Shown here in pieces: positions 19,442 to 41,489 of a stretch of DNA of 64,000 bases; positions within the stretch are counted from its first letter, which is position 1; the number at the start of each line of letters is the position of its first letter. A program made the position numbers and the translations under genes. The stretch lies in the NCBI GenBank assembly GCA_963695675.1, contig CAVOGY010000002.1, positions 159,491-223,490 on the forward strand, in the 5' to 3' direction. This DNA is from an uncultured Solirubrobacterales bacterium (GTDB lineage: Bacteria; Actinomycetota; Thermoleophilia; Solirubrobacterales; 70-9). The notes below the pieces were generated by a model that was not told the DNA's origin, did not search any database, and was given only the letters and a program-made list of their open reading frames with translations.

Positions 19442-19624
19442 ATGCCCCGTCAATACAAGTGCCTGGACGCCGGCTGCGGGGCGACCATCGTCGCCCCCGA
19501 CGAGCAGGCGCTGGTGGAGGCGGTGCAGCGGCACATGGCGGAGGAGCACGACAGCTTCGAGCTCGAGGACGTGATCATCGACATGTCCACCGAGCTCGAG
19601 GGGGACGGCGAGGAGGAGGGGTGA
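19442..19624 (+). CDS. 60-aa small protein (DUF1059-like)
   Basis: GAAGGAGG RBS. Translation is MPRQYKCLDAGCGATIVAPDEQALVEAVQRHMAEEHDSFELEDVIIDMS... Its stop overlaps the next start (GTGATGG). Confidence 0.6.
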   Translation: MPRQYKCLDAGCGATIVAPDEQALVEAVQRHMAEEHDSFELEDVIIDMSTELEGDGEEEG

Positions 19625-20996: not shown

Positions 20997-22136
20997 CTAT
21001 CCGGCGACTGCCACGGCCTGGCTCTCGACCGCGGCCGCGAGGGCGTCGAAGACCAGATCGGCGGTCTGGGTGCTGGCATTGGGCCCCATCAGGCCGACCC
21101 GCCAGATCGCCGGCGCGTCCGGGCCGAGGCCGCCGCCGACCTCGATGCCATTGGCGAGGAGCTGGCGTTGCACGGCCTTGCCGTCGATTCCGTCGGGGAC
21201 GCGGACCGCCGTCAAGGGAGCGAGCTGGTGTGCGGGCTCCGCCAGGAGCTCGAACCCCGCGTGGCACGCCAGCTGCTGGAAGTAGGTTCCCGCCTCGGTG
21301 TGCCTGGCCCAGCGGCGCTCGAGACCCTCGTCGAGGGTCTGCCGGAGGACTTCGTGGAGCGCGTAGATGTGGAGGATCGGTGCGGTGTGATGGTAGGTCG
21401 CCGGGCGTTCCACCCAATAGGCATGCAGGAGCAGCAGGTCCATCGAGAACGGAACCGGCAGCCGCCTGGCGCGGATCCGCTCCAGCGCTCGATCCGAGAC
21501 TGCTATCGGGGACATGCCGGGCGGAGCGGCCAGGCACTTCTGGGTGCACGAGTAGGCGTAGTCGAGCCCCCAGCCGTCGAAGTCCAGCTCGACCCCGCCC
21601 AGGGTGGTGACGCAGTCCGCCATCAGCAGAGTGTCGCGTCCGCGCATCGCGGCGCCGAGCCCCTCAAGCGGATGCTCGCAGCCGGTCGAGGTTTCCCCAT
21701 GGATGACGGCGAGCAGGCGCGCCTCGGGGTGATCGTCCAGGGCGGCGAGCAGCCGCTCGTTGGGGACGTGCTCACCCCAGTCCGCAGTGACCTCGATCAC
21801 CTCGGCGCCGGAGCGCCGGGCTATCTCCGCCATCCGCGCACCGAAGTAGCCGCTGGCGCCGACGATCACCGTCTCGCCCGGCTCGACCAGGTTGGCCAGG
21901 CCGGCCTCCATCCCCGACGTCCCGGTCGCCTGCAGGGGCAGGACCAACCCGCCCTCGGCGCGGAAGACCCTGCGAAGCCCCTCGACCACGTCGAGCAGGA
22001 TCTCGTGCATCTCCGGATCGAGGTGCCCGAGCATCGGCTTGCCCATCGCTTCGAGCGCGGCGGGATCGACGTTGGTCGGCCCGGGACCGCACAACAGCCT
22101 CTCTGATGGGGAGATCGGGGGCAGCTCGTAGCTCAC
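20997..22136 (-). CDS. class-V aminotransferase (alanine/serine--glyoxylate aminotransferase type)
   Basis: The AGXT-family layout includes the PLP-lysine context YSCTQKCL. The start was taken at GTG 22136 (VSYELPP...); the track start is TTG 22172. Confidence 0.8.
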
Positions 22137-22193
22137 CCCGGCAACCTTCTCATGAGGCGTACACCAGTTCAAACTAAGAAAAAACTGGAATAG

Positions 22194-22221: not shown

Positions 22222-23175
22222 GTGGCCGTCACGGTGACCCAGCTCTCGGCCTTTCTCGCGGTCGTTCGCCACGGCTCGGTGACGGGGGCGGCGGAGGAGC
22301 TCGTGGTGACCCAGCCGTCGGTCTCGGCCGCCGTCGCGGCGCTCGAGCGCGAGCTGGGGGTGGATCTGACAGAGCGGGCCGGCCGCAGCATCAGGCCGAC
22401 TCCCGCGGGCGAGGCTTACGCGCGGTACGCCGCCGACGTCCTCGCCCTGCTCAAGGAGGGCTCTGAGGTGGTGGGCGAGGTCGCCAAGGGCACTGGTGCC
22501 CCGCTGCGAGTCACCGCGGTGACCACCGCGGGCGAATACCTGCTACCGCCGCTCCTGCATGCATTCCGGGAGCGCGAGCCAGAGCTCGAGGTGAGCGTCC
22601 ACGTCGGCAACCGCGAGGAGGTCTTCCGGCGTCTCGAGGCCCATGAAGCCGACGTGGCAATCTCCGGGCAGGCTCCCGGCGAGCGTGGCTTCGACGGGGC
22701 GGCTTTCCTCGACAACGAGTTCGTTCTGATCACCTCCCCCGACGACCCGCTGGCGAAGCGAGCCTGGGTCGCTGTGGACGAGCTGGCGGGCACTCCGTGG
22801 CTGATGCGCGAGCAGGGCTCAGGGACGCGCCGGTTGTGCGAGACCTACCTCAACTCCCACCAGCTCCAGCCGTCGATGCTGACGCTGGGGTCGAACGGCG
22901 CCATCAAGAACGCCGCCCGCATGGGGCTCGGCGTCGCCCTGCAGTCCCGCGAGGCCGTCGCGCTGGAGCTGGAGCTCGGCTTGCTGAAGACCATCCGCCC
23001 ACGCGGTGGGCTGCCGAAGCGCTCCTGGTACGTGGTCCGCTCAACCATCGGCCCCGGCTCGGAGCTCGCCGCGGCCTTCATGGAGTTCGTTCGGTCACCC
23101 GCCGCCGGCCAGGCGCTCGCGCGCTCACACGGCGATGAGGTCAAGCGAACGCGCGGTCGCCTGGCGGGCAGGTGA
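22222..23175 (+). CDS. LysR-family transcriptional regulator
   Basis: N-terminal wHTH reads LSAFLAVVRHGSVTGAAEELVVTQPSVSAAVAALERELG. Length of 317 aa. Confidence 0.85.
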   Translation: MAVTVTQLSAFLAVVRHGSVTGAAEELVVTQPSVSAAVAALERELGVDLTERAGRSIRPTPAGEAYARYAADVLALLKEGSEVVGEVAKGTGAPLRVTAVTTAGEYLLPPLLHAFREREPELEVSVHVGNREEVFRRLEAHEADVAISGQAPGERGFDGAAFLDNEFVLITSPDDPLAKRAWVAVDELAGTPWLMREQGSGTRRLCETYLNSHQLQPSMLTLGSNGAIKNAARMGLGVALQSREAVALELELGLLKTIRPRGGLPKRSWYVVRSTIGPGSELAAAFMEFVRSPAAGQALARSHGDEVKRTRGRLAGR

Positions 23176-23177
23176 GA

Positions 23178-24137
23178 TCAGGCGTGGAGCGCGGAATCCG
23201 CGCCGGTCACGTTCGGCGGATGCCGGTCGTGCGGATCGATGCCGGCACCGATCTCGGCTCGAGTCGCGACCATGTGGTAGAGCAGCAGGGTCTGGGCGAG
23301 GGCGAGCGACTCCGAGCGGTGCAGGTCGGTCCCGATCGTGAACTCCCCGAGCCGGTGGGCGCGGAGGTGGCTCGCGTGCTGCATCCGCGTCCAGACGGCG
23401 TCCTCGAGCTCGGCGGCGAGCTTGGGGTCCGTGTCGCCCGGGATCCTGAGGAGCGACTCGTGTTCGCGGCGGACCAGGGTCGGGCCGTCCCCGTCGGGTA
23501 GGAGAAAGGGGGAGAGGTCGGGATGCCTGAGCGTGTCCCGCAGGATCAGGTCCGCATCGAGCTGCTCCGGGTCGCTGCTCCTGGTCGGGGCGAACGAGAC
23601 GATGATGTCGGCGAGTCGCCGCTGGGGGCGGATGTACTGCTCGACATCCCCCTCCCGGCGATCGAGCTCGGCGATCACCTCGTGGGTGGTGTAGCCCCGA
23701 CGCGTGCAGTCGCGGGTCAGCTTCCAGGTCCGGCGCAGCTCCTCGGGCGGGGCCAGGAAGACCCTGATGTCATGGTCGGCGCAGAGCTCCTCCGAGTGGA
23801 AGTTGAGCAGTCCCTCGACCACGACGAAGGGGTTGGGGCGGACGTACTCCGGTGGGCCGAGGGTCCCGCTGCGATGGTCGTAGGTGGGCTTCAGCACCGG
23901 CTCTCGGTTGCGGAGGTGCGCGAGGTGCTGACCGAGGATCTCGAGATGGTTTGCGGCCGGATTCAGAGGGGTGATGCCGAGCTCGGCTCGCTGCTGGCGC
24001 CCGTACCGGTGATAGTCGTCGCCGCTGATGTACGAAACGCGCTCACGCCCGCCGAGGACGCGGACCACGCCTCGGGTAAACGTCGTCTTCCCGGCGGCGG
24101 AATCTCCGACGACTCCGAGGACGACCGGACGAGTCAT
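23178..24137 (-). CDS. prk: phosphoribulokinase (PRK/uridine-kinase family)
   Basis: P-loop GDSAAGKTT. PRK-like blocks are ISGDDYHRY, LKPTYDHRSGTLGPPEYV, VVVEGLL and YIRPQRRLADII. The start was set at MTRPVVLG to avoid overlapping the next gene. Confidence 0.8.
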   Translation of the reverse strand: MTRPVVLGVVGDSAAGKTTFTRGVVRVLGGRERVSYISGDDYHRYGRQQRAELGITPLNPAANHLEILGQHLAHLRNREPVLKPTYDHRSGTLGPPEYVRPNPFVVVEGLLNFHSEELCADHDIRVFLAPPEELRRTWKLTRDCTRRGYTTHEVIAELDRREGDVEQYIRPQRRLADIIVSFAPTRSSDPEQLDADLILRDTLRHPDLSPFLLPDGDGPTLVRREHESLLRIPGDTDPKLAAELEDAVWTRMQHASHLRAHRLGEFTIGTDLHRSESLALAQTLLLYHMVATRAEIGAGIDPHDRHPPNVTGADSALHA

Positions 24138-24183
24138 CCGGGGAAGGATGCCAGACCGGCGGCCACCCGCCGCCGGCGGGCTC

Positions 24184-25203
24184 TCAGGCGCTGGTTGCGC
24201 TCCGTGGCTCGACGACGGGCGCTCGTGAGCCGTTCTCACGCTCCTCGATCAGGTCGATCTTGGCCAACAGGTGCTCGGCCATTCGCAGCGACGCCTGGTC
24301 GATCAGGCGGCCATCGAGCGAGACTGCGCCACTACCCGCCCTGCCCGCCTCCTCCATCGCGGCCATGATCCGGCGGGTCCGCGAGACCAGGCGGTCTGAC
24401 GGGGAGAAGACCTGGTTGGCGAGCTCAACCTGGCTTGGATGGATGCACCACTTGCCCTCGAAGCCGAGGATGGATGCTCGGCGCGCGGCGACCAGATAGC
24501 CCTCGGCATCCCCGAAGTCCCCGAACGGGCCGTCGATCGGCCTCAGTCCGTGTGCGCGGCAGGTGACCGCGATTCGAGCCAGCGGGTAATGCCATTGATC
24601 GCCCCAATGGAGCTCTCTGCTCACCTCCCCATCCTCGTTCGGATCGGTGAGCACGGCGTAGCCGGCGTCCGAGCCACCGATCGAGGCCGTGTGGCTCTCG
24701 ATCGAGGCCGCGTAGTCCGCGACGCCGAAGATCAGCGCCTCTAGCCGCTCCGGGGAGCTGGCGGCGATCTCGTCGAGGTTGACCATTCCGGACGCGGTCT
24801 CGATCAGCGCCGAGATCCCGATTGGCTTCTCGATCCCGACGGCTTCCTCGATCTGGGTCAGGAGGGTCGCCACCAGATGGATGTCGCCCGCCGATCCGGC
24901 CTTCGGGATCAGGACCGTGTCGAGCCATTCTCCGCTCTGCTCGACGACGTCGACGATGTCGCGGTAGCAATAGTGGGTGTCGAGCCCGTTGATTCTCACC
25001 GTCACCGCGCAGCCGGTCCAGTCGAGTTCGTTGAGGGCCGCGATCACATTCCGCCTCGCCTCGGGCTTGTCGTCGGGGGCCACCGCGTCCTCGAGATCGA
25101 GCATGACCACGTCGGCGCCTAGTCCAGGCGCCTTCTCGAGCATTCGCATGTTGGTGCCGGGGACGCAGAGCTCGCTGCGATGCAACCGCACTGGAATCGT
25201 CAT
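24184..25203 (-). CDS. mcl: HpcH/HpaI-CitE family lyase, malyl-CoA lyase-like
   Basis: 339 aa. CitE/Mcl-type N-terminus (RSELCVPGTNMRMLEKAPGLGADVVMLDLEDAV) and the block GFEGKWCIHPSQV. Substrate specificity is inferred from family and context only. Confidence 0.7.
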   Translation of the reverse strand: MTIPVRLHRSELCVPGTNMRMLEKAPGLGADVVMLDLEDAVAPDDKPEARRNVIAALNELDWTGCAVTVRINGLDTHYCYRDIVDVVEQSGEWLDTVLIPKAGSAGDIHLVATLLTQIEEAVGIEKPIGISALIETASGMVNLDEIAASSPERLEALIFGVADYAASIESHTASIGGSDAGYAVLTDPNEDGEVSRELHWGDQWHYPLARIAVTCRAHGLRPIDGPFGDFGDAEGYLVAARRASILGFEGKWCIHPSQVELANQVFSPSDRLVSRTRRIMAAMEEAGRAGSGAVSLDGRLIDQASLRMAEHLLAKIDLIEERENGSRAPVVEPRSATSA

Positions 25204-25437
25204 CTCTCCCTCACTCGGCCGACGGTGGTCACCGCAGTGAAGCGGCTCGGCGCTCGCCGATCAAGCAAAGTGACCAGGGGATATATAGAGAAAACCTTTT
25301 GAATGGTCCAAAGTCATTAGCCAAAGGGCTTCACTCCCTTGGCCTACCCAGCCGAATGTACCCTTTTGTTCAGTGGGGCGTTTATAGTAGGCGCGACAGA
25401 CGTCCTCGCGCCCGCTGAGCGCTATCCGGAAGGAGCC

Positions 25438-26892
25438 ATGATGGCCGCCAAGAACGAGCCCGAGGTGCCCAGCGAGGTCGAGGCCGCACTCTCCTCGCCG
25501 AAGATCGAGCCCGCTCCGCAGACCCTCGAGGAGGCGCGCGCGGCTCCTGGACGCGCGGAGAAGATCGCCGAGATCGAGAAGCGGATCGAAAGCGAGGGGA
25601 TCGAGTACGTCTTCTTCCAGCAGATCTCGATCAGTGGCCACATCAACGGCAAGGGGGTGGTGGCGAGCTGGTTCCCGAAAGTGGCCGCGCGCGGCTACCA
25701 GCTTGTCTACGGGGCGACCGCCGACCTGTTCACTGACCGTGAGGGCAACTACATCGGCTTCGGGCCACAGGAGTCGGAACTCGCTGCGATGGCCGACCTC
25801 GACACCTTCGAGCGGCTGCCGTGGGACCCGCGTGTGGCGCGGGTCTACTGCGACTGCTACGACACCGAGACGGGCGAGTTGCTCGACGCGGACCCGCGCC
25901 AGAACCTGAAGCGGGTTGCCCACGACATCGAGGAGGAGCTCGGCTACGCCTTCCTCTGCGGGATCGAGCCGGAGATGATGTGGATGAAGATCCCGGAGCC
26001 GGGCGAAGAGCCCGAGGGCGTCACCAAGCCCTGGTGCTACCACATCAACCAGTTCGAGCAGCTGCAGCCCGTGATCCTCGACGTGATCGCCTACGGCAAG
26101 GCGATGGGCCTCGACATGAGCTACGGCGACCATGAGGACGCCCCCGGGCAGCTGGAGCTCAACTTCCGCTTCGACCGCGCCGTGCGGACCGCGGACAACA
26201 TCAGCACCTACCGCCAGATCTGCAGCGCGGTGGGGCGCAAGCACGGCCTCCACGCTTCATTCATGCCGAAGCCGTTCACGGGTGTGTCCGCGAACGGACA
26301 CCACCATCACTTCACGCTGCTCGATGAGAGTGGCAACAACGTCTTCCACGACCCGGACGGACCGGCGCAGCTGTCCGAGATCGGCCGGCGGTTCATGGGT
26401 GGGATCCTCGACCACTTCCGGGCCCTGGTCTGCATCGGCTCGCCTACCGTGAACTCCTACAAGCGGATGTGGGACTTCGGCTTCTGGGCGCCGGTCTACA
26501 AGAACTACGGCTGGCAGAACCGCACCTGCACGGTTCGTGTCGCCAGCGGAGGCCGCTTCGAATTCCGTGGGGTGGACTCCTCCTGCAACCCGTACCTGAC
26601 CCAGGCCGCGCTGTTGAGCGCAGGACTGGACGGGGTGCGCCGCGAGCTCGACCCAGGTCCGCCCCAGCAGCGGAACACCTACGACCTGCTTGCCGAGGGC
26701 GCCGAGTTCGAGCGCGTGCCCGATCATCTCGGCGAGGCGCTGGGTGCCCTCGAGGCCGACGAGGTCGTGCGCGGGGCGATGCCGGGCCGACTCTACGATG
26801 TGTTCATGCACTACAAGCGCGACGAGTGGGAGCGCTACATGGCTGCGGTGACCGACTGGGAGCGCCAGCAGTACCTGGACGTCATGCCATGA
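25438..26892 (+). CDS. divergent glutamine-synthetase-family protein (module 1)
   Basis: GS catalytic-domain blocks are HEDAPGQLELNF, FMPKPF, NSYKR and NRTCTVRV. The ATP/metal loop reads ANGHHHHFTLLD rather than GNGCHMHMSLWD as in the paralog at 41674. GGAAGGAG RBS; ATG at 25438 or 25441. Confidence 0.85.
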   Translation: MMAAKNEPEVPSEVEAALSSPKIEPAPQTLEEARAAPGRAEKIAEIEKRIESEGIEYVFFQQISISGHINGKGVVASWFPKVAARGYQLVYGATADLFTDREGNYIGFGPQESELAAMADLDTFERLPWDPRVARVYCDCYDTETGELLDADPRQNLKRVAHDIEEELGYAFLCGIEPEMMWMKIPEPGEEPEGVTKPWCYHINQFEQLQPVILDVIAYGKAMGLDMSYGDHEDAPGQLELNFRFDRAVRTADNISTYRQICSAVGRKHGLHASFMPKPFTGVSANGHHHHFTLLDESGNNVFHDPDGPAQLSEIGRRFMGGILDHFRALVCIGSPTVNSYKRMWDFGFWAPVYKNYGWQNRTCTVRVASGGRFEFRGVDSSCNPYLTQAALLSAGLDGVRRELDPGPPQQRNTYDLLAEGAEFERVPDHLGEALGALEADEVVRGAMPGRLYDVFMHYKRDEWERYMAAVTDWERQQYLDVMP

Positions 26893-26911: not shown

Positions 26912-27841
26912 GTGTGCGGCATAGCGGGGATCATTTACCGGAACGGCAACGGGCAGGAGAAGGTGGGGCGCGACATGACCCGGATGCTCCAGGCGATGAA
27001 GCACCGGGGCCCCGACTCCACCGGCTTTGCGCTGTACCGCGGGGGCGGCGACACCTACGTGATGCACGTGAAGCTGAGCGAGCCGACCGAGCACGACCCC
27101 GAGCTCGAGCGGCGCATGCAGCGGCAGCGGGGCGAGGTCGAGACGCGCATGCGCGCGGCGGGCGCCCGGATCGAGGAGATCAAGGAGGCGCCTCGCACGA
27201 TGACGATCATCTTCGGCTTCGAGGGCGATCTCAAGCTGATCGCCGACGCCACCGAGCGTGTCCGCCACACCGAGGTGCTGTCGCTGGGGCGCTCGCTGGA
27301 GATCGTCAAGGACCTCGGCGACGCCGAGACCGTATCCGGCGGATACCACCTCGGTGAGTACACGGGCACCCACGCGATCGGCCACGCGCGCATGGCGACC
27401 GAATCGGACGTCGACATCGCCAACGCACACCCGTACTGGGCCTACCCGTTCCCCGATGTCGCCGTGGTCCACAATGGCCAGCTGACCAACTTCCACGACT
27501 GGCGCCGGCGGTTGACGCGGGCCGGCCACCGCTTCCAGTCCGAGTGTGACTCGGAGATCATCGCCGTCTACCTCGCCGCGCAGATGAGCCAGGGCCGGAC
27601 GCTCGAGGAGGCGATGCACCAGAGTCTCGAGGACCTCGACGGGGTCTTCACCTACATCTGCGTCACCGAGGACTCGCTCGGGGTGGCCAAGGACGAGCTC
27701 GGCGCCAAGCCGCTGGTGCTCTACGAGGACGACGACCTGGTGGCCCTCGCTTCCGAGGAGATCGCGATCCGCCAGGTGCTCGACCGCGAGATCGAGACCC
27801 ACGACCCCTATGAGGGCGAGGTGCGCGTATGGACCAGGTGA
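26912..27841 (+). CDS. class-II (Ntn) glutamine amidotransferase, GlxB/MgsA-like (module 1)
   Basis: The mature N-terminus would be Cys (MCGIAGII). It has the HARMATES block and is a paralog of 43060-43968. Confidence 0.85.
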   Translation: MCGIAGIIYRNGNGQEKVGRDMTRMLQAMKHRGPDSTGFALYRGGGDTYVMHVKLSEPTEHDPELERRMQRQRGEVETRMRAAGARIEEIKEAPRTMTIIFGFEGDLKLIADATERVRHTEVLSLGRSLEIVKDLGDAETVSGGYHLGEYTGTHAIGHARMATESDVDIANAHPYWAYPFPDVAVVHNGQLTNFHDWRRRLTRAGHRFQSECDSEIIAVYLAAQMSQGRTLEEAMHQSLEDLDGVFTYICVTEDSLGVAKDELGAKPLVLYEDDDLVALASEEIAIRQVLDREIETHDPYEGEVRVWTR

Positions 27842-28614
27842 GCGAGCAGCCTCGCATGGATGAACGCGGCCTCGTCGAGCTCGACGACTCGATTCCGAAG
27901 GCGGCGAAGATCGATGGACAAAGCGCGGTGATCGAGGCACGCGAGATGACCACGCGCAAGATCAACGCGGAGCTGCGCTGGCTGATCTATGAGCAGGGCG
28001 TCGCCGAGGTGACCGTGCGCGATCCGAGCGCAAGGCACTCGCTCGGCGTCGCGATACTGGCCCGCTGCAGGATCCGGTTCGAGGGCAGCCTCGGCTACTT
28101 CGGCTGCGGGCTGATCGACGGTCCGGAAGTCGAGATCACCGGGCGGGTGGGCTGGTCGGTCGCCGAGAACATGATGTCCGGCGTGGTGGTGGTCGAGGAG
28201 AACGCCGGATCTCTGGCAGGCGCCGCGATTCGGGGGGGCGACCTCGTCATCAAGGGCGACGTCGGAGCCCGCACGGGAATCGACCAGAAGGGCGGCACGA
28301 TCATCGTGCTCGGAAACGCGGCCTCGATGACCGGCTTCATGATGCAGCGCGGACGCCAGATCATCCTCGGCGACGTCGGGCCCGGGCTCGGGGACTCCAT
28401 GTACGACGGCACGATCTACGTCGGGGGCAAGATCGCCTCGCTCGGAATCGACTGCGTCGAGGGAGAGTGGACCGATGCCGACACCGAGCTGGTCGAGCGC
28501 AAGTTCTCGATCTACGGGCTCGGAGCCCCGCCGAAGCTGCGCAAGCTCGTCTCCGGAAAGAAGCTCTACAACTATGACAACCTCGAACCCAGCGAGCGAA
28601 AGCTCGTTCTCTAG
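27829..28614 (+). CDS. GXGXG-motif (glutamate synthase alpha C-terminal domain-like) protein, MgsB-like (module 1)
   Basis: Beta-helix repeats read GYFGCG, NMMSGVVVVEENAG, GGDLVIKGDVGARTG and GGTIIVLGNA. It overlaps the previous gene by 13 nt. Confidence 0.85.
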   Translation: MDQVSEQPRMDERGLVELDDSIPKAAKIDGQSAVIEAREMTTRKINAELRWLIYEQGVAEVTVRDPSARHSLGVAILARCRIRFEGSLGYFGCGLIDGPEVEITGRVGWSVAENMMSGVVVVEENAGSLAGAAIRGGDLVIKGDVGARTGIDQKGGTIIVLGNAASMTGFMMQRGRQIILGDVGPGLGDSMYDGTIYVGGKIASLGIDCVEGEWTDADTELVERKFSIYGLGAPPKLRKLVSGKKLYNYDNLEPSERKLVL

Positions 28615-28624
28615 GAGGACCGCG

Positions 28625-30085
28625 ATGGCGGATCAGAAACAGCAGGCATCCGGGGAGGCTCCTGCCAGGCGCGAGGTGCTCGGCCGAAGTCAGATCTTCA
28701 CGCCGGAGGTGATCAACGACATCCACATGAAGGCGGAGCTCGGGCGCTACCGGATGCGCGGCTTCTCGATGTTCAAGAAGCTTCCCAGCTGGGACGAGCT
28801 GATCTTTCTTCCCGGGACGCTGACGCGCTTCGTGATCGAGGGCTACCGCGAGAAGTGCGACACCAGGACGGTGCTGGGCAGCCGCTTCGCCAAGAATCCC
28901 CTCGAGCTCGACATCCCGGTCTACATCACCGGAATGAGCTTCGGCGCGCTGTCCATCGAGGCGAAGATGGCGCTCGCCAAGGGGGCCTCGATGGCCGGGT
29001 CGGCGACCTGCTCGGGAGAGGGGGGAATGATCCCTCCGGAGCGCGACCTCTCGACCAAGTGGTACTACCAGGTGATCCAGAGCCGCTACGGCTTCAATCC
29101 CCACCACCTGATGCTGGCCGACGGCGTCGAGTTCTTCATCGGGCAGGGCTGCAAGGTCGGCGTGGGCGGCCACCTGATGGGTCAGAAGGTGACGGAGCAG
29201 GTCGCCGAGATGCGCAGCCTGCCCGCCGGGATCGACCAGCGGTCGCCGGCGCGTCACCCGGACTGGCTCGGGCCCGATGACCTCTCGCTGAAGGTGCAGG
29301 AGACCCGGGAGGCGACCAACTACGAGGTCCCCATCCAGCTCAAGCTCGGCGCGGCACGCGTCTACGACGACGTTCGAATGGCCGCCAAGTGCGGCCCGGA
29401 CATCATCTATCTGGACGGAGCCGAGGGCGGCACCGGCGCCGGTCCCCACATCGCGGCTGAGGAGACCGGAATCCCGTTGCTCGCCGCCATTCCCGAGGCG
29501 CGTCGGGCGCTCGAGGACGTCGGCCTCCCCGACGAGGTCGACCTCGTGGTCGCGGGCGGGATCCGCAACGGCGGCGATATCGCCAAGTGCCTTGCGCTCG
29601 GCGCGGACGCGGTCGCGATCGGCCACTCCGCCCTGATGGCGCTCAACTGCAACAAGGAGATCCCGGGCGTGACCGACTATGAGGGCACGGTCGGCGTGCC
29701 GGCGGGGCAGTGCTACCACTGCCACACGGGCCGGTGCCCGGTTGGGATCACTACCCAGGACCCCGAGCTCCGGAAGCGGCTCGACGTCGACGCGGCGGCC
29801 CAGCGGGTGTTCAACTTCCTGCACACCCTGACGCTCGAGGTGCAGATGCTCGCCCGGGCCTGTGGCAAGACCAACGTCCACAGCCTCGAGCCCGAGGACC
29901 TTGCGGCGCTCACGGTCGAGGCCTCGGCCATGGCGCGGGTGCCGCTGGCGGGCACGGACTACGTCCCCGGCGTCAGCGAGGAGCGCGCGCTGGACGAGAT
30001 CCGCACCCTGCTCGACCAGTATCTGGAGAACCCGGTGGACTACATCCCGGATTCGGCCCCAACCGCTGCGGAGCGAGGCGAGTGA
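28625..30085 (+). CDS. FMN-dependent glutamate-synthase-domain protein, GlxD/MgsC-like, retaining a Cys-rich Fe-S-type motif (module 1)
   Basis: GltS FMN-domain blocks are [23 protein letters not shown] and DGAEGGTGA. The motif CYHCHTGRCPVGITTQDPELR is present. TAGGAGG RBS before ATG 28625. Confidence 0.9.
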   Translation: MADQKQQASGEAPARREVLGRSQIFTPEVINDIHMKAELGRYRMRGFSMFKKLPSWDELIFLPGTLTRFVIEGYREKCDTRTVLGSRFAKNPLELDIPVYITGMSFGALSIEAKMALAKGASMAGSATCSGEGGMIPPERDLSTKWYYQVIQSRYGFNPHHLMLADGVEFFIGQGCKVGVGGHLMGQKVTEQVAEMRSLPAGIDQRSPARHPDWLGPDDLSLKVQETREATNYEVPIQLKLGAARVYDDVRMAAKCGPDIIYLDGAEGGTGAGPHIAAEETGIPLLAAIPEARRALEDVGLPDEVDLVVAGGIRNGGDIAKCLALGADAVAIGHSALMALNCNKEIPGVTDYEGTVGVPAGQCYHCHTGRCPVGITTQDPELRKRLDVDAAAQRVFNFLHTLTLEVQMLARACGKTNVHSLEPEDLAALTVEASAMARVPLAGTDYVPGVSEERALDEIRTLLDQYLENPVDYIPDSAPTAAERGE

Positions 30086-30525
30086 CCCGCGGCGACCACG
30101 TGCGTGAGCCCGAGAAGGTCGTCTCGATCGACGCCGAGTACCTCTCGGGCAAGCGCTTCCCGTATCAGGAGGACATCTCGCTGGTCGAGGACATCGACCT
30201 CCAGGCGGCGACCCCCGGCAATGATCTGAACTGGCTCGAGGACGTCGAGCTGCTCGAGGAGGAGGGCACGCCGGCCGTCTTCGACCGCTACTCGAACTCG
30301 TTCCTGAGGATCTACTTCCCGATCCCGGAAGGTCGCGAGGACGAGATCGCCCGCAAGGTGCTGATCGCCCACCTGACCTCCGGCAACTCCTATGGCATCC
30401 GGCTCAAGCGACCGCACGCCAAGTTCCCCCAGCCCGAGCTGGGTCCCTGGGTCGACGGGTCCCAGACCGTCGGCGAGGACTGGAGGCCCCAGGTGCTCGA
30501 GGGCTGGGAGCCCCCGGAGCACTGA
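30082..30525 (+). CDS. orphan acidic 147-aa protein, no family recognised (module 1)
   Basis: The GTG start overlaps the previous stop (GTGA). Third codon positions are G/C-rich. Translation is VTRGDHVREPEKVVSIDAEYLSGKRFPYQEDISLVEDIDLQ...VLEGWEPPEH. The next gene starts 5 nt downstream. Confidence 0.55.
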   Translation: MTRGDHVREPEKVVSIDAEYLSGKRFPYQEDISLVEDIDLQAATPGNDLNWLEDVELLEEEGTPAVFDRYSNSFLRIYFPIPEGREDEIARKVLIAHLTSGNSYGIRLKRPHAKFPQPELGPWVDGSQTVGEDWRPQVLEGWEPPEH

Positions 30526-30530
30526 CGCCG

Positions 30531-31820
30531 ATGCCGGCCGTGCCCGAGTCGGCGCGCCACCTGGTGATTGGCGCGGGCGTTCACGGGCTGTCCACCGCCT
30601 GGCACCTTGCCGCGGCGGGGGAGGAGGCTCTGGTCGTCGACAAATCGATGGTCGCGGCCGGGGCGTCGGGAATCGCCTGCGGGGTGATCCGGAACAACTA
30701 CTTCCAGCCCGCGATGTCGGATCTGATCGCCGCCTGCGTCGAGATCTGGGAATCCGACCCCGACGCGTTCCACTATCACGGGTCCGGCTACGTCGCCCTG
30801 GGCCCGCCGGCCCAGGAGGAGGAGCTGGCCCAGGTCGCCGATCGTCACCGTGGGATCGGCTATCCGTCGGAGCTCTACACCGGCGAGGACGAGGTCGCCG
30901 CCCACATGCGCGGCATGTTCGGCGACTGGCGTGCGGAGGGCCTGACGGTATGCCTCCATGAGCACGCCGGCGGTTTCGCCTTCAACCGCGAGTCCATGCT
31001 CGGGCTCGCCGACAAGGCCCGCGGCGCCGGCGCGACGATCCTGGAAGGAATCGAGGTCACCGGGTTCTCCTTCGACGGCTCTGGCGCCGTCAGCGGCGTG
31101 CAGACGGCCGCCGGGGAGGTGCAGGTCGATCAGGTCGTGGTCGCCGTCGGCCCGTGGATCGCGTCGCTCTGGGAGATGCTGGGTCAGCCCGGCCGCATCG
31201 ACGTTCGCAGTCCGGACGGCTCGCTGGAGCGCGATCTACCGATGTGGACCTACTGGTACTTGCAGGAGGGAGAGGTGGCGCTGCCGCCCTCGACGCTGAC
31301 GACGGACGACGGCCTCGAGTCGCCGGTGCTGCACGTCGACTCCCACCGTCCGCTGCTCGATGACGACGGCGGGCTGATCACCGATCAGCCCTGGGGCATC
31401 TACGTGAAGCCGGACCGCCGGACGATCCAGGGCGGCGCCCAGCCCCTGACCGTCGGCCAGAGCTTCGAAGTGGACCCCTATCCGACCGGCAGCGTGGAGC
31501 CGGGTTTCCCGGACCTCTGGTGCGCGGCGCTCTCTCACTGCCTGGAGCGCTTCCGAGGCTGCCGCGGCAGCTACGTGCAGGCGCGGTCCGGGGGAGTCGG
31601 GGCCTTCAGCCCCGACAATTTCCCGATCTTCGATCGGATGCTCCCCAACGTGTACGTCGCGGCCGACTCGAACCACGGCTACAAGATGATCGCGGTCGGG
31701 CGTGAGATCGCCCGGGAGCTTCGGGGCGAGCACTCCTCGCTCCTCCATCCGTTCCGCTTCGAGCGCTTCGAGACCGGCGAGCTGCACCCGGTTTCGAGCA
31801 GCCCCTACCCGTGGAGCTAG
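30531..31820 (+). CDS. FAD-dependent oxidoreductase, DAO family (sarcosine-oxidase-beta-like), copy 1 (module 1)
   Basis: Dinucleotide fold (LVIGAGVHGLSTAWHLA). 429 aa, ending SSPYPWS. Clear paralog of 31915-33186. Confidence 0.85.
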   Translation: MPAVPESARHLVIGAGVHGLSTAWHLAAAGEEALVVDKSMVAAGASGIACGVIRNNYFQPAMSDLIAACVEIWESDPDAFHYHGSGYVALGPPAQEEELAQVADRHRGIGYPSELYTGEDEVAAHMRGMFGDWRAEGLTVCLHEHAGGFAFNRESMLGLADKARGAGATILEGIEVTGFSFDGSGAVSGVQTAAGEVQVDQVVVAVGPWIASLWEMLGQPGRIDVRSPDGSLERDLPMWTYWYLQEGEVALPPSTLTTDDGLESPVLHVDSHRPLLDDDGGLITDQPWGIYVKPDRRTIQGGAQPLTVGQSFEVDPYPTGSVEPGFPDLWCAALSHCLERFRGCRGSYVQARSGGVGAFSPDNFPIFDRMLPNVYVAADSNHGYKMIAVGREIARELRGEHSSLLHPFRFERFETGELHPVSSSPYPWS

Positions 31821-31914
31821 CCGTGAGCTCCGACCGGCTTCGCCATCAGACCGCGCCCGTAGCGGCCGCCATCATCAGTCGCGACCGCTTCGCGGTCGCT
31901 CGAAGGAGAGCGGC

Positions 31915-33186
31915 CTGACGGGCGCTAGCCATGTCGTCATCGGCGGCGGCGTCCACGGCCTCTCCGCCGCCTGGCGCCTGGCAGAGCGCGGCGCCGACGT
32001 GCTGGTGCTGGAGAAGGACCGGATCGGCGCCGGAGCCTCCGGCATCGCTGGAGGGATCGTGCGCAACTACTACCGCTCCCCCGCGGTCACCGACCTGATC
32101 CGGCAATCGGTTGAGATGTTCGAGGCGGACACGAGCGGATACGGCTTCCGGCAGGTCGGCTACCTCGCTGCCGTGCCCGAGGCACAGGTCGAGGACCTGG
32201 TCGCGATCCGCAAGCAACACGAGGACGCGGGGTATGAGTCTGAGCTGGTCGTCGGGGCGCAGGCCTGTCGCGAGTACCTGACCTGGACCTGGCCGGACTG
32301 GGAGGCACCCGTGGAGGCTGTGCTCTACGAGAGCAGGGGAGGCTGGGCGGACGCGATGCAGACGGTGCGCTACCTGGCCGAGCGGGCTCGAGCCTGCGGT
32401 GCGCGAATCGTGGAGGGCATCGAGGTGACGGGGTTCGAGCTTGGCCCCGGTGGCGTTGAGGCCGTGGTCACCTCCGGCGGAGGAATCGTCTGCGAAGCCG
32501 TGGTCGCGGCGCCCGGTCCATGGGCGGCCCGCGTCTGGGAGATGCTCGGCCAGCCCCCGGAGGTCGAGATCGGCGGAGGGAATGCGCGAGACCTGATCTC
32601 CTACTGGAAGGCGCAGGAGGGCCAGTTCGCGCTTCCGGGCACCGGGCTCGGGGGCCGCGCCGGCCGGGAGGCTCCCGTCGTTCACCTCGACCAGACGGGC
32701 GGGCTGCGCTCCGATCGCGACGGGCGAGATTTGCTGCCGGGCGCCTGGGGCATCTACTTCCACATGGGCCGGACCGGGACCGGTGTGACCGGCGGCGGGC
32801 TCCCCGTCCTGATCTCCGAGCCGGAGCTCGATCCGTACGGCCCCGCGAATCCGGCGCACGCGGCCGAGCCGGCGTTCGCCGAGTTCTTCGAGTCCGGGCT
32901 GGCGGTCGCCTTCGGGCGCTTCCGCGGACGCAGCGGCGAGTGGCAGGTCACGCCGGCGGGCGGGATCGTGGCCCACACCCCGGACAACTATCCGGTGTGC
33001 GACTGGGTGCTGCCGAACGCCTACGCGATCGTGGACTCGGGCCACGGCTTCAAGATGCTCGCGCTGGGGCGCCTGGCCGCGGACGACGTCCTCGACGGCG
33101 CACCGGCCCTCGACGCCTACAGGCTGTCCCGCTTCGCCCGGGGCGAGACCCACCTCGCCTCCTCGGGCCCATACCCATGGACCTGA
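31915..33186 (+). CDS. FAD-dependent oxidoreductase, DAO family, copy 2 (module 1); apparent CTG start
   Basis: VVIGGGVHGLSAAWRLA, ending SSGPYPWT. The only in-frame ATG/GTG/TTG is at 31702, 119 nt inside the previous gene. CTG 31915 sits 6 nt after GAAGGAGAG and gives an N-terminus collinear with the paralog. Confidence 0.7.
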   Translation: MTGASHVVIGGGVHGLSAAWRLAERGADVLVLEKDRIGAGASGIAGGIVRNYYRSPAVTDLIRQSVEMFEADTSGYGFRQVGYLAAVPEAQVEDLVAIRKQHEDAGYESELVVGAQACREYLTWTWPDWEAPVEAVLYESRGGWADAMQTVRYLAERARACGARIVEGIEVTGFELGPGGVEAVVTSGGGIVCEAVVAAPGPWAARVWEMLGQPPEVEIGGGNARDLISYWKAQEGQFALPGTGLGGRAGREAPVVHLDQTGGLRSDRDGRDLLPGAWGIYFHMGRTGTGVTGGGLPVLISEPELDPYGPANPAHAAEPAFAEFFESGLAVAFGRFRGRSGEWQVTPAGGIVAHTPDNYPVCDWVLPNAYAIVDSGHGFKMLALGRLAADDVLDGAPALDAYRLSRFARGETHLASSGPYPWT

Positions 33187-34656: not shown

Positions 34657-36333
34657 CTAGAACAGCCCGACCGTCCGGCCCTCGGCGTCGACGTCCACGT
34701 TGTGGGCGGCGGGTGTCTTGCCCAAGCCCGGCATCTGCTGGATGGCGCCGCACAGGGGCACGAGCCAGCCGGCGCCGGTATAGGCGCGAACGTCCCGGAC
34801 CGGGAGCTGGAAACCGGTGGGGGCACCGAGCAGCTCGGGGTCTGCCGAGAGGGAGAGCGGGGTCTTGGCCATGCAGATCGGCAGATGGGCAAGGCCCTGG
34901 TCCGTGAACTGCCGGATCTTGCGCTCTGCCTCGAGGTAGTAGACGATTTCCGCGGCGCCGTAGATGCGCTCGCCGATCGCCTCGATCTTCGACTTGACGT
35001 CGTCGTCATCGTCGTAGAGAAGGCGGAGATCGTTTGGCCCGTCGCAAGCGTCGGCGACGGCCTCGGCCAGCTCGGCGGTTCCCTTGCCGCCCTCAGCGAA
35101 GCCGGTGCTGATCGCGGCCCCCGCCGCGCCCCCCTCTTCGGCGAGATGCCTGACCAGCTCAACCTCCTCGTCCGTGTCCTCCGGCCTGCGGTTGACGGCC
35201 ACTACGGCGGGCAATCCGAATTCCTCCACGATGCCCAGATGGCGATAGAGGTTGGCGATCCCGGCCTCGATCGCCTTCCGAGCCCGCGTCTTGCTCGCCC
35301 CTTCGGCCTCGTCGAGACCCCCATGGTGCTTCAGCGCCCGCACCGTCGCGACCAGGACCACTGCGCTGGGGCGGATCCCGCCCGCCCGGCAGACGATGTC
35401 GATGAACTTCTCCATCCCCATGTCCGAACCGAACCCGGATTCGGTGACGACGTAATCCCCGAGCTTCAGCCCAAGCAGGTCGGCGATCAGGGATGAGTTG
35501 CCGTGGGCGATGTTCGCGAACGGCCCGGCGTGCATCAGGCAGGGCTGCCCCTCGAGAGTCTGGATCAGGTTCGGCTTGATCGCATCCTTCAACAGGACGG
35601 TCATCGCTCCGGCTGCCCCCAGGTCGTCGGCGGTCACCGGCTCGCCCTCGTGGGAGTAGGCGGCGGTGACCTTTCCAAGCCGCTCGCGCAGGTCCTGGAC
35701 GTCGCGGGCGACGGCGAGGATCGCCATCACCTCGGAGGCGGCCGTGATATCGAACCCGCTCTCGCGGGGGTAGCCGTTGGCGGGGCCGCCGAGGCCGAGT
35801 GCCACCGCGCGCAGGGCCCGGTCGTTCATGTCGACTGCTCGCTTCCAGGTCACCCGGAGAGCGTCGATCTTGTGAGGGTTGCCGTGAAGGATCGACGCGT
35901 CGAGCAGGGCCGCGAGCAGATTGTTGGCTGCGCCGATCGCGTGAATGTCGCCGGTGAAGTGGAGGTTGAGGTCCTCCATGGGCACCACCTGGGCGAGCCC
36001 GCCGCCGGCGGCGCCGCCCTTGATTCCGAACACGGGACCGAGGGAGGGCTCCCTCAGGCAGAGGACCGGACTCTTGCCTATGTGGCCCAAGCCCTCCGTC
36101 AGCGCCACCGAGGTGGTGGTCTTTCCCTCGCCGGCCCTCGTCGGCGTCATACCGGCGACGCAGACGAGCTTGGCGTCCGGCCTGCCGGCGAGCCGGTCGA
36201 TCGCAGCGAGCGAGATCTTCGCCTTGTTTCGTCCGTAGGGCTCGATCTCGTCGGGCTCGAGTCCGACTCGCTCGCCGATCACGTCAATCGGTTCGAGCTG
36301 CGCTTCCTGGGCGATCTCGAGGCTGGTCTTCAT
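34657..36333 (-). CDS. fhs: formate--tetrahydrofolate ligase
   Basis: 558 aa. MKTSLEIAQEAQLEPI..., with the block PTRAGEGKTTTSVAL and collinearity over the full length. Confidence 0.95.
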   Translation of the reverse strand: MKTSLEIAQEAQLEPIDVIGERVGLEPDEIEPYGRNKAKISLAAIDRLAGRPDAKLVCVAGMTPTRAGEGKTTTSVALTEGLGHIGKSPVLCLREPSLGPVFGIKGGAAGGGLAQVVPMEDLNLHFTGDIHAIGAANNLLAALLDASILHGNPHKIDALRVTWKRAVDMNDRALRAVALGLGGPANGYPRESGFDITAASEVMAILAVARDVQDLRERLGKVTAAYSHEGEPVTADDLGAAGAMTVLLKDAIKPNLIQTLEGQPCLMHAGPFANIAHGNSSLIADLLGLKLGDYVVTESGFGSDMGMEKFIDIVCRAGGIRPSAVVLVATVRALKHHGGLDEAEGASKTRARKAIEAGIANLYRHLGIVEEFGLPAVVAVNRRPEDTDEEVELVRHLAEEGGAAGAAISTGFAEGGKGTAELAEAVADACDGPNDLRLLYDDDDDVKSKIEAIGERIYGAAEIVYYLEAERKIRQFTDQGLAHLPICMAKTPLSLSADPELLGAPTGFQLPVRDVRAYTGAGWLVPLCGAIQQMPGLGKTPAAHNVDVDAEGRTVGLF

Positions 36334-36355: not shown

Positions 36356-37573
36356 TCAATGCGAGACTGCCGCCGCGCCCACCTCGGAGACCAGCCGGTC
36401 TTCATAGAAGCGCTCGAGCGCGAACGACTCGATCAGCTCGGGGACCTCGTCAGTGGCGATCAGCTCGGCCATCGTCTTGCCGACGATCGGCGCGGCCTTG
36501 AAGCCGTAGGTGCCCCAGCCGGCGCTGAGCAGGAAGCCGTCGACCTCCGTCCGGCCGAGGATCGGGCTGTAGTCGGGGGTGATGTCGCAGAGTCCCGCCC
36601 AGCTGCGGAGCATGCGGGCGCGCTCCAGTTGGGGGAAGAGCTCGAGGGTGTGGCGGGAGCACTCCTGCAGGAAGGTGAGTGTCCCCTGCTGGCGGTAGGT
36701 GGTCCAGGGCTCGATCTCGGCACCGATCAGGAACTCCCCGCGGTCGGTCTGAGAGATGTAGACGTGCATCTGCGAGGAGACGACGACGATGTCGAGCAGG
36801 GGCTTCAGCGCCTCGGTTACGAAGGCCTGCAGGATGTGAGTGGTGATCGGAAGCTGGATACCGGCCAGCGCGGCGACGGTCGAGCTCCAGCCGGCGGTGG
36901 CGCTGACGACCGTCCCGGCGTCGATCCTTCTGCCATCGGCGAGGGCGACTCCGGTGGCACGACCGTTGGAGCGCTCGATCCCGGTGACCTGCCGGTACGG
37001 GTGGACCTCAGCGCCCGCCGCGTCGGCGGCGCTCGCCAGTCCCCACACGACCGCGTCGTGACGGATGATGCCGCCGGGCGGGTGGTAGAGCGCGCCCATC
37101 ACCGGATAGACGGCGTCTGGACTCAGCGCCATCGCCGGCGCCAGGCGTGCGATCTCCTTCGGGCCTATCACCCGGGAGTCGATCCCGGCCAGCCGGTTGA
37201 CCTCGGCTCGCTCGTTCATCACGAACATCGCCCGATCGGTGTGCGCCAGGGTCAGATGGCCCTGCTGCGAGAAGAGAAGGTTGAAGTGCAGCTCTGACGA
37301 GAGCCCCTCGTAGAGCCGTACCGAGGCGTCGTAGAACCGCGCCCCCTCCGGCGTCTTGTAGTTGGCACGCAGGATGGTCGTGTTGCGCCCGGCGGCGCCG
37401 GAGCCGATGTAGCCCTGCTCGAGCACGCAGACGTCCGTGATCCCGTGGTCGCGGGCCAGGTAGTAGGCGATCGCCAGCCCGTGCGAGCCGCCGCCGACGA
37501 TGACGACGTCGTAGCGGTCCTTGAGGTCCGGCGTCCGGCGCCACATGCGGCGCTTGCGGAAGAGGTCACGCAT
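36356..37573 (-). CDS. soxB: heterotetrameric sarcosine oxidase beta-subunit family (N-methylglutamate dehydrogenase subunit by context)
   Basis: YDVVIVGGGSHGLAIAYYLARDHG. 405 aa from MRDLFRKRRMW. The start overlaps the soxG stop. Confidence 0.9.
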   Translation of the reverse strand: MRDLFRKRRMWRRTPDLKDRYDVVIVGGGSHGLAIAYYLARDHGITDVCVLEQGYIGSGAAGRNTTILRANYKTPEGARFYDASVRLYEGLSSELHFNLLFSQQGHLTLAHTDRAMFVMNERAEVNRLAGIDSRVIGPKEIARLAPAMALSPDAVYPVMGALYHPPGGIIRHDAVVWGLASAADAAGAEVHPYRQVTGIERSNGRATGVALADGRRIDAGTVVSATAGWSSTVAALAGIQLPITTHILQAFVTEALKPLLDIVVVSSQMHVYISQTDRGEFLIGAEIEPWTTYRQQGTLTFLQECSRHTLELFPQLERARMLRSWAGLCDITPDYSPILGRTEVDGFLLSAGWGTYGFKAAPIVGKTMAELIATDEVPELIESFALERFYEDRLVSEVGAAAVSH

Positions 37574-41445: not shown

Positions 41446-41489
41446 GGCGCTACCGCTTGTTGGCCTGTCAACGGACCTCTCTTTGCGCC

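Follow-up and report, generated by a model that had tools for sequence, protein, structure and literature searches.

A conserved four-cysteine site homologous to the glutamate synthase cluster site in an N-methylglutamate synthase-type operon of an uncultured Solirubrobacterales bacterium

A 64,000-nucleotide stretch of DNA from an uncultured Solirubrobacterales bacterium (Actinomycetota; Thermoleophilia; GenBank assembly GCA_963695675.1, contig CAVOGY010000002.1, positions 159,491 to 223,490 of the forward strand; hereafter the window) carries two gene modules related to N-methylglutamate synthase (NMGS), the MgsABC enzyme of the N-methylglutamate (NMG) pathway. FMN1, the flavin mononucleotide (FMN)-binding subunit of module 1, is an FMN subunit of the MgsC lineage whose four-Cys site is fully conserved and is the homologue of the cluster site of glutamate synthase (GltS). 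Module 1 as a whole appears, from its gene content and alignments, to be an Fe-S-retaining five-gene form of the NMGS system. Gene calls were based on open reading frame (ORF) length, G+C content at third codon positions and Pfam matches (window GC content 67.6%), and they place the two modules, each of four paralogous genes, on the plus strand.

The four-cysteine site of FMN1

The features that define the site are as follows.

28625-30085, + strand: FMN1, FMN-binding Glu_synthase-domain subunit of module 1, 486 aa, MgsC-like and carrying the four-Cys site (Pfam, AlphaFold2)
29648-29650, + strand: TGC codon of Cys342, in ...ALMALNC, the fourth FMN1 Cys, aligned with the first 3Fe-4S ligand of GltS
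29651-29710, + strand: 20-residue stretch between Cys342 and Cys363, NKEIPGVTDYEGTVGVPAGQ, containing an 18-residue insertion relative to GltS
29711-29737, + strand: C-x2-C-x4-C of Cys363, Cys366 and Cys371, followed by PVGITTQ

Translation from the ATG at 28625 yields a 486-aa protein of the same length as its homologues, and its loop, taken from the ORF at 28625-30085 on the plus strand, reads CYHCHTGRCPVG. A previous sequence-only reading of the window described a Cys motif kept in module 1, with the spacing C-x2-C-x4-C, in the segment ...VPAGQCYHCHTGRCPVGITTQDPELR (longer excerpt ...ALMALNCNKEIPGVTDYEGTVGVPAGQCYHCHTGRCPVGITTQDPELR). The three TGC codons are indeed present at 29711 (Cys363), 29720 (Cys366) and 29735 (Cys371); however, three is an undercount, as a fourth Cys (Cys342, at 29648) completes the motif C-x20-C-x2-C-x4-C-P. 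The same reading equated the segment with the 3Fe-4S ligand loop of GltS, and alignment to solved GltS structures establishes this homology. C-x5-C-x4-C is the cluster-ligand motif of GltS. In phmmer alignments, Cys342, Cys366 and Cys371 match the three 3Fe-4S ligands of GltS (PDB 7mfm, 1ea0 and 2vdc), with ...lgC-x5-C-x4-C-PVG of GltS opposite ...alnC-(18-residue insertion)-...C-yh-C-htgr-C-PVG of FMN1. Owing to the insertion, the three ligands are spaced C-x23-C-x4-CP in FMN1, with Cys363 as an extra, rather than C-x5-C-x4-C-P. Cys363 has no Cys counterpart in GltS and aligns instead with the extra Cys of relatives with the motif C-x2-C-x2-C-x4-CP. The inserted stretch is nearly invariant among close FMN1 homologues.

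Family and fold assignments agree with this placement. FMN1 scores 310.8 bits against Pfam PF01645 (Glu_synthase; cut-off 20.4), and FMN2, its counterpart in module 2, scores 300.5 bits. The AlphaFold2 model of FMN1, built from a 51-sequence alignment, has a mean pLDDT (predicted local distance difference test) score of 90.9, falling to about 77-79 in the inserted loop, and a predicted template modelling (pTM) score of 0.90. Its best Foldseek matches in the PDB are the GltS FMN domains 1ofd, 1ea0 and 7mfm (E about 1e-24); glycolate oxidase and flavocytochrome b2 come next. These matches indicate a GltS-like FMN-binding TIM-barrel fold. The convergence of the four Cys on one cluster is predicted on the strength of their alignment to known GltS ligands. 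It is likely that the four Cys of FMN1 bind a single Fe-S cluster.

In comparison with the GltS FMN domain (1ea0, 1ofd, 7mfm), FMN1 shares the TIM-barrel, the FMN and substrate motifs and the C-x4-C-P-V-G end of the loop. In contrast, it stands alone as a polypeptide, where the GltS domain is part of a protein of about 1500 aa, it lacks a central domain and a GltD partner, and it is only about 25-30% identical, with the 18-residue insertion after the first ligand and the extra fourth Cys. FMN1 is placed in the MgsABC lineage because it has this insertion in common with MgsC and is 53% identical to FMN2, as against about 25-30% to GltS.

Conservation and distribution

Conservation of the site was followed in 80 orthologous loci (L002-L081) from species-representative genomes. 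All four Cys are present in 80 of 80 orthologues; Cys342 is always encoded by TGC, and the other three positions vary synonymously between TGC and TGT. The site is also complete in 114 of the 120 protein clusters nearest to FMN1, the other six falling outside the search pattern, and in 23 sequences that each represent a different 50%-identity cluster. The 80 orthologues are 83-95% identical and derive from three classes of Actinomycetota: Thermoleophilia (Solirubrobacterales and Gaiellales), Actinomycetes (the cultured carriers Pseudonocardia nigra DSM 104088, Pseudonocardia sp. TRM90224 and Tamaricihabitans halophyticus DSM 45765, together with metagenome-assembled genomes of Streptosporangiaceae and Geodermatophilaceae) and Acidimicrobiia. 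Some FMN1 homologues carry the JGI label mgsC. A plasmid search with FMN1 returned no close orthologue, every match lying below 60% identity; it did surface Cys-bearing proteobacterial forms with a longer loop, which are treated below.

That the Cys are a chance or lineage-specific feature without a cofactor role is scarcely credible. They persist in every one of the orthologues through synonymous codon changes, are kept in distant clades and phyla, and match known cluster ligands position for position.

The partner subunits diverge further than FMN1 (83-95%) over the same genomes, with identities falling to about 50% for GS1, 60% for GAT1 and 66% for GXG1. FMN2, for its part, is 77% identical to an alphaproteobacterial MgsC. 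Unusually strong constraint on the FMN subunit or horizontal transfer may account for this pattern.

Loop states and origin of the site

When 1.84 billion cluster representatives were searched exhaustively, 84 sequences that span the loop were recovered, distributed among the following states.

State A: GltS-type C-x5-C-x4-C, 24 of 84
State B: short four-Cys C-x2-C-x2-C-x4-C, 17 of 84
State C: insertion without Cys, the FMN2 and canonical MgsC type, 9 of 84
State D: insertion with all four Cys, the FMN1 type, 23 of 84
Other: unclassified loops, several of them frame-shifted fragments, 11 of 84

State B has the loop length of GltS with one central Cys added; placing the insertion between Cys1 and Cys2 of state B gives state D. 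A central extra Cys is the classical difference of 4Fe-4S from 3Fe-4S ferredoxin motifs. All four Cys of FMN1 have counterparts in the short-loop C-x2-C-x2-C-x4-CP proteins, which are of 'archaeal type' and often fused to GXGXG and ferredoxin domains; FMN1 differs from them in its insertion between Cys1 and Cys2, its amine/C1 gene context and the absence of a fused ferredoxin domain. Since Cys363 corresponds to the extra fourth ligand of these relatives, the predicted cluster of FMN1 is somewhat more likely to be [4Fe-4S] than [3Fe-4S]. Three of the eight state-B proteins scanned (P0138, P0140 and P0158) are fused to a 4Fe-4S dicluster ferredoxin domain. On the quick tree described below, the short-loop proteins are the nearest outgroup of the insertion-bearing clade, and because of their ferredoxin fusions, which indicate a relay function, the four-Cys site in these nearest relatives is, as judged from domain architecture, part of an electron wire.

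A quick neighbour-joining tree, calculated without bootstrap, orders the sequences as state A, then state B, then the insertion clade, inside which the FMN1 group is sister to the long-loop Cys-bearing proteins together with Cys-less MgsC. The insertion, with its (D/E)Y..(L/I)G core, is common to Cys-less MgsC and to all Cys-bearing insertion types; in its 18-residue MgsC form it occurs in FMN1, FMN2 and the Aminobacter, Paracoccus and Methylobacterium sequences. These patterns suggest that the insertion arose in a four-Cys background, with the Cys-bearing state ancestral and the Cys-less state derived within the MgsC-like clade. Loss of the Cys is nearly all-or-none, Cys-less MgsC having D/E, Y/F, W/F/Y and D at the four positions.

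A second, long-loop module stands beside the module-1-type operon in Tamaricihabitans (L074, 96-1406, minus strand) and in an uncultured actinobacterium (L070, 18458-19789). The Tamaricihabitans copy reads GHCHKMHTGQCPVG, with Met in place of the third Cys, and is a natural three-Cys intermediate. Among the short-loop four-Cys proteins, P0162 (733 aa) has a LAGLIDADG-like domain at 293-338 and a Glu_synthase match in two pieces, and may contain an intein.

Module 2 and the Cys-less MgsC proteins

The second module has the following features.

41638-43044, + strand: GS2/GmaS (Pfam)
43060-43968, + strand: GAT2 (Pfam)
43815-44666, + strand: GXG2 (Pfam)
44666-46048, + strand: FMN2, the MgsC of module 2, of the canonical Cys-less type, 74-78% identical to plasmid-borne proteobacterial MgsC/GlxD-type proteins, including that of A. 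aminovorans pAA01
FMN2 loop codons, + strand: Asp348 GAC at 45707, Tyr367 TAT at 45764, Trp370 TGG at 45773, Asp375 GAC at 45788

The earlier observation that Trp and Asp take the place of the last two Cys in module 2 holds and extends further: all four Cys are lost, with Cys342 of FMN1 corresponding to Asp348 of FMN2, Cys363 to Tyr367, Cys366 to Trp370 and Cys371 to Asp375. The Lys and Arg of the family stretch GxK(V/I)...R are conserved in both proteins. FMN1 and FMN2 are 53% identical over 435 residues, and the two modules are taken to be old paralogues because their other subunits are only 33% (GS), 35% (GAT) and 36% (GXG) identical. A recent duplication of module 2 as the source of module 1 was ruled out on the same grounds, the subunits being 33-53% identical. 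With 578.8, GS2 clears the 469.6 cut-off of the GmaS model TIGR03105, and its matches to the GmaS structures 9qur and 7cql reach about 400 bits. By these sequence scores GS2 is a clear GmaS, and module 2 corresponds to the canonical MgsABC, which lacks the cluster and is paired with a true GmaS. The FMN of module 2 would be re-reduced by glutamate in each turnover, giving a redox-neutral reaction.

The four Cys separate FMN1 from the MgsC proteins compared, as the sequence-only reading proposed. There is no Cys in the loop of MgsC from Aminobacter aminovorans KCTC 2477 pAA01 (L001; ALGDNDPRWEDEYQKLGTTAGAYDDWHEGKDPAGITTQ), which lies in an mgsABC-glnT-soxBDAG gene context, nor in those of Paracoccus aminophilus pAMI6 (L084) and Methylobacterium sp. 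DM1 pLVM1 (L085). A. aminovorans uses methylamine without a methylamine dehydrogenase and has eight NMG-pathway genes on pAA01 (PMC8235418). The functionally expressed MgsC of M. extorquens DM4 is 442 aa long (PMC6237917), a length that would fit the Cys-less type. In Methyloversatilis universalis FAM5, deletion of mgsC abolishes growth on methylamine (PMC5023235).

Relative to MgsABC (EC 2.1.1.21; Aminobacter aminovorans, Methylobacterium extorquens, Paracoccus), module 1 has the same gene order of glutamine synthetase (GS)-like ligase, class-II amidotransferase, GXGXG subunit and FMN subunit. FMN1 is 52-53% identical to MgsC and has the same 18-residue insertion; the linkage to sarcosine-oxidase-like and C1-tetrahydrofolate (THF) genes known from MgsABC is frequent in module-1-type loci without being universal. 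Module 1 departs from MgsABC in the four Cys that stand where MgsC has D/E, Y/F, W/F/Y and D, in a ligase (GS1) that fails the GmaS model, and in an additional, translationally coupled gene for a 147-aa protein and a linked DAO-family flavoprotein. The true match to the MgsABC family in the window is module 2.

Cys-bearing subunits also occur in Proteobacteria. Plasmid matches from Acidithiobacillus caldus (...MGCN-x26-CHHCHTGRCPVG) and Aquabacterium olei (...LGCN-x27-CHHCHTGKCPVG) have four Cys and are encoded in glnT-GATase-glxC-FMN operons; that of A. caldus follows soxB-, soxD- and soxA-like genes and precedes folD. A search seeded with the Aquabacterium protein recovered mostly unnamed homologues, the named ones being Burkholderiales and one gammaproteobacterial metagenome-assembled genome; named relatives at 88-99% identity belong to Leptothrix, Hydrogenophaga, Rhodoferax and Sphaerotilus. 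These long-loop forms have four Cys around the insertion, as FMN1 does, but in a longer arrangement, C-x26/27-C-x2-C-x4-CP. On the quick tree they are sister to Cys-less MgsC, not to module 1, and they lack small147 and DAOa, two companions of FMN1 described in the next section.

This distribution does not support taking the Cys, which the sequence-only reading linked to a different chemistry, as a mark of chemistry apart from the NMG pathway. Cys-bearing subunits adjoin sarcosine-oxidase-like, FTHFS/FolD and Amt genes in many Actinomycetota, the Cys-bearing form of A. caldus stands beside sarcosine-oxidase-like genes and folD, and the Cys-bearing state seems to be ancestral.

The module 1 operon and its companions

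FMN1 is preceded by three genes and followed by three others.

25339-26892, + strand: GS1, GS-fold ligase (Gln-synt_C); start uncertain, a later ATG near 25438 being plausible
26912-27841, + strand: GAT1, class-II (Ntn) glutamine-amidotransferase-like, MgsA-like; N-terminus V-C-G-I-A-G, catalytic Cys present
27829-28614, + strand: GXG1, GXGXG beta-helix subunit, MgsB/GlxC-like (Pfam)
30082-30525, + strand: small147, unannotated, acidic, Cys-free protein of 147 aa; its GTG start overlaps the FMN1 stop (GTGA), and it was missed by the ORF filter
30531-31820, + strand: DAOa, FAD-dependent oxidoreductase of the sarcosine-oxidase-beta/DAO family (profile matches)
31702-33186, + strand: DAOb, DAOa paralogue (41% identity); start uncertain, overlaps DAOa

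GS1 scores 346.2 against TIGR03105, below the cut-off of 469.6, and its scores to true GS (259 bits) and to the GmaS structure 9qur (254 bits) are nearly the same. Of the residues at the ammonium site of GS, GS1 has Tyr instead of Asp50' and Trp instead of the flap Glu; GmaS has Ala48' and Trp300 at the ammonium-site positions (PMC7948447). Because the residues that GS uses for ammonium are lost, as in GmaS, GS1 is probably a gamma-glutamyl-amine ligase, neither a glutamine synthetase nor a typical GmaS.

Neighbours were counted in the 59 module-1-type loci with complete flanks. GS1 is present in 58, GAT1 and GXG1 in all 59, a GntR regulator in 28, a soxB-like gene in 27, FTHFS in 20 and an Amt transporter in 7. 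Several Thermoleophilaceae (L013, L024 and L025) have the co-directional series soxA-soxG-soxB-FTHFS-GntR-GS1-GAT1-GXG1-FMN1-DAOa, and Pseudonocardia shows the classical NMG layout, with soxA/soxB running divergently from GS1...FMN1.

These neighbours bear on whether module 1 is instead a true split glutamate synthase (GOGAT), working with GS1 and Amt in ammonium assimilation and drawing electrons from ferredoxin via the Fe-S cluster. Its subunits resemble the GltS alpha subunit (amidotransferase with catalytic Cys, GXGXG subunit, FMN subunit bearing the cluster Cys), several relatives have an Amt gene next to the operon, GS1 is no closer to GmaS than to true GS, and one NCBI source calls a proteobacterial Cys-bearing member 'ferredoxin-dependent glutamate synthase'. 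This reading is nevertheless distinctly improbable. GS1 lacks the Asp50' and flap Glu needed for ammonium binding and deprotonation (PMC7948447), and FMN1, with its MgsC-specific insertion, resembles MgsC (53%) much more than it does GltS. FMN1 also fails the GltB equivalog model NF008730, with 130.7 bits against a cut-off of 1047, and the module does not match the GltB architecture, its subunits being encoded by separate genes with no central domain. Finally, the recurrent sarcosine-oxidase-like, FTHFS and DAO neighbours have no role in a GS-GOGAT system.

Of the companions downstream, small147 is the most specific to the Cys-bearing clade of FMN1. It lies directly downstream of FMN1 in 76 of the 76 loci with enough sequence, at 64-94% identity, and is absent from the Cys-less loci and the proteobacterial long-loop Cys-bearing loci examined. 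It has 7761 database homologues; the named ones among those listed are 'hypothetical protein' and none has a Pfam domain, and small147 itself has no sequence match in Pfam, NCBIfam or the PDB. It may be an additional subunit or serve in docking, possibly positioned at the inserted loop over the predicted cluster.

Module 1 had also been tied to extra flavoproteins, an association that stands for DAOa and falls for DAOb. DAOa is near FMN1 in 45 of the 59 complete loci (24 directly downstream, 13 divergent upstream), and DAOb in 11. From the first GTG of DAOb (31702) up to the GxGxxG of FAD binding, no further start codon occurs (window positions 31702-31930). The resulting N-terminus of 75 residues is rich in Arg, Ser and Pro, junk-like, and shares 119 bases with the end of DAOa; the true start may be non-canonical, or there may be an error in this region.

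Proposed function and alternative readings

Module 1 is tentatively read as a complex of separate subunits with the overall form of a glutamate synthase alpha subunit, belonging to the MgsABC lineage and retaining an ancestral Fe-S site. In the proposed sequence of steps, GS1 would ligate an amine to glutamate, the amine most likely being methylamine imported by the linked Amt. GAT1 would hydrolyse the gamma-glutamyl amide and channel the amine to FMN1, with GXG1 as scaffold. At FMN1, amine and 2-oxoglutarate would condense, and the imine would be reduced by FMNH2 to an N-alkylglutamate. The predicted cluster next to FMN would serve as a one-electron port to the outside, with small147, DAOa and a soluble ferredoxin as candidate partners. 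The overall reaction would then be GOGAT-like (gamma-glutamylmethylamide + 2-oxoglutarate + 2e- -> N-methylglutamate + glutamate), or electrons would flow outward. By analogy with GltS, the cluster may lie within electron-transfer distance of FMN and connect it to an external redox partner, a proposal judged to fall just short of an even chance.

The NMGS reaction itself is unsettled, having been described both as a redox-neutral exchange of glutamate and methylamine and as a GOGAT-like conversion of gamma-glutamylmethylamide (GMA) and 2-oxoglutarate (PMC6237917). A GOGAT-like reaction of GMA with 2-oxoglutarate was proposed in a paper that names no electron source (PMC6237917); as read here, such a reaction is formally reductive. 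Full-text literature searches returned nothing relevant on N-methylglutamate or its synthase with iron-sulfur or 4Fe-4S clusters, on the NMG pathway in Actinobacteria, or on methylamine use in Thermoleophilia or Acidimicrobiia.

Several observations weigh against a relay. Across the 80 loci, a Cys-motif scan found no ferredoxin, GltD-like or other Fe-S partner gene consistently linked to the operon, the matches being sporadic, and no Fer4 domain is fused to FMN1. DAO-family flavoproteins normally give electrons to O2, electron-transfer flavoprotein or quinone, not to Fe-S enzymes. The Cys-bearing operons of A. caldus and Aquabacterium olei are otherwise ordinary and lack small147 and DAOa; the predicted cluster therefore needs no dedicated operon-encoded partner, and the overall reaction may be unchanged. 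A proven NMGS, for example MgsC of M. universalis FAM5 (METUNv1_760113), may also carry the Cys, and the sarcosine-oxidase-like genes in the window could serve either module.

A large ORF with two 4Fe-4S-type motifs (CTKCGKCHEACP ... CMQCNACVEICP) was ruled out as a dedicated partner, being present in 7 of the 80 loci. Its distance from FMN1 is 2-8 kb, and both its position and its orientation vary (L022 16144-18594; L025 19813-21402; L026 12823-15552; L035 13773-16730; L047 17185-19290; L054 3863-6019; L081 3-1724).

Alternatively, the predicted cluster may be a structural or regulatory (redox- or O2-sensing) leftover, with both modules catalysing the same redox-neutral NMGS reaction and differing in regulation, affinity or amine range. 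This is the main rival reading and is somewhat less likely than the relay, yet much is consistent with it. Cys-bearing subunits occur in proteobacterial NMG-type clusters without extra partner genes, and no conserved ferredoxin or GltD-type donor is found near the operon in the 80 loci. Cys-less MgsC nests inside Cys-bearing lineages on the quick tree, such that the reaction may predate loss of the cluster, and the Cys-less form shows that fold and reaction are independent of the cluster (PMC8235418, PMC6237917). However, neither the four Cys nor the surrounding loop varies at all across very deep divergence, which fits a working cofactor site while still being compatible with a structural role. 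In addition, small147 and DAOa were gained in the FMN1 clade and are lacking from the Cys-less form, and in the nearest outgroup the site belongs to a ferredoxin-domain wire.

The identity of the amine forms a separate question. Methylamine is favoured, with fair likelihood, as the substrate of module 1. Operation of the same Fe-S machinery on another amine, with DAOa oxidizing the resulting N-alkylglutamate, would accord with the score of GS1 below the TIGR03105 cut-off and its 33% identity to GS2; the presence of two modules in one island, deeply diverged at 33-53% per subunit, likewise suggests that they are non-redundant. This alternative is improbable, as an N-methyl group is indicated by how often FTHFS and sarcosine-oxidase-like (C1-THF-forming) genes are linked to the operon. 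The substrates of Amt transporters, ammonium and methylammonium rather than larger amines, further count against it.

In its most specific version, the relay reading holds that GS1-GAT1-GXG1-FMN1-small147, usually with DAOa, is an Fe-S-wired, ancestral form of the NMG pathway that is widespread in soil Actinomycetota. It would act as a GOGAT-like synthase in which electrons are recycled via the cluster from a DAO-type oxidation of N-methylglutamate, with small147 in a docking role. As a whole this version is quite unlikely.

The surrounding methylated-amine and C1 island

By its gene content, the window is a methylated-amine/C1 island. The remaining features are listed below.

16177-17622, + strand: Amt-family ammonium/methylammonium transporter
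18693-19406, + strand: class-I glutamine amidotransferase/peptidase-C26-like protein
19459-20598, + strand: R2-like ligand-binding oxidase
20997-22172, - strand: class-V aminotransferase
22222-23175: LysR regulator, adjoining phosphoribulokinase
23178-24239, - strand: phosphoribulokinase (300 bits against a cut-off of 236)
24184-25203, - strand: CitE/malyl-CoA-lyase-like protein
34657-36333, - strand: formate-THF ligase (FTHFS)
36356-37681, - strand: sarcosine-oxidase-like beta subunit
37566-38312, - strand: sarcosine-oxidase-like gamma subunit
38309-41287, - strand: sarcosine-oxidase-like alpha subunit
inside 41194-41580, - strand: sarcosine-oxidase-like delta-like ORF
46054-47254, + strand: NAD-dependent formate dehydrogenase, frame-shifted

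An Amt gene is directly upstream of the module-1-type operon in L004, L005, L007, L009, L010, L064 and L074. The class-I amidotransferase and the R2-like oxidase stand directly upstream of GS1 in the first five of these loci (L004, L005, L007, L009 and L010), and the former is a possible gamma-glutamyl-amide hydrolase. The sarcosine-oxidase-like set, in the order delta-alpha-gamma-beta on the minus strand (36356-41445), lies with FTHFS between the two modules. The presence of phosphoribulokinase hints that C1 units are oxidized to CO2 and re-fixed by the Calvin cycle.

The N-terminal part of the formate dehydrogenase lies in the ORF at 46054-46614 and the rest in the frame at 46403-47254 (PRK07574 positions 117-384). 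The frameshift, near 46375-46385, could reflect a pseudogene or a sequencing error. Assignment of the frame at 46403-47254, a '2-hydroxyacid dehydrogenase', as the hydroxypyruvate reductase of the serine cycle was ruled out, as it is the C-terminal part of the NAD-dependent formate dehydrogenase.

Significance

The Cys-bearing operon shows extreme conservation and is common among soil Actinomycetota that are abundant and for the most part uncultured (Solirubrobacterales, Gaiellales, Acidimicrobiia and Pseudonocardia). Any surveys of methylamine users that rely on GmaS-type criteria could miss carriers of module 1, as GS1 fails TIGR03105. With small147, the operon also brings to light a new protein family of about 7,700 relatives whose sole visible association is with the FMN1-type enzyme. 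The occurrence in one genome of paralogues with and without the ancestral Fe-S site offers a ready system for the question of the NMGS reaction. If the Fe-S-wired reading is true, methylamine nitrogen would be passed to 2-oxoglutarate without release of free ammonia.

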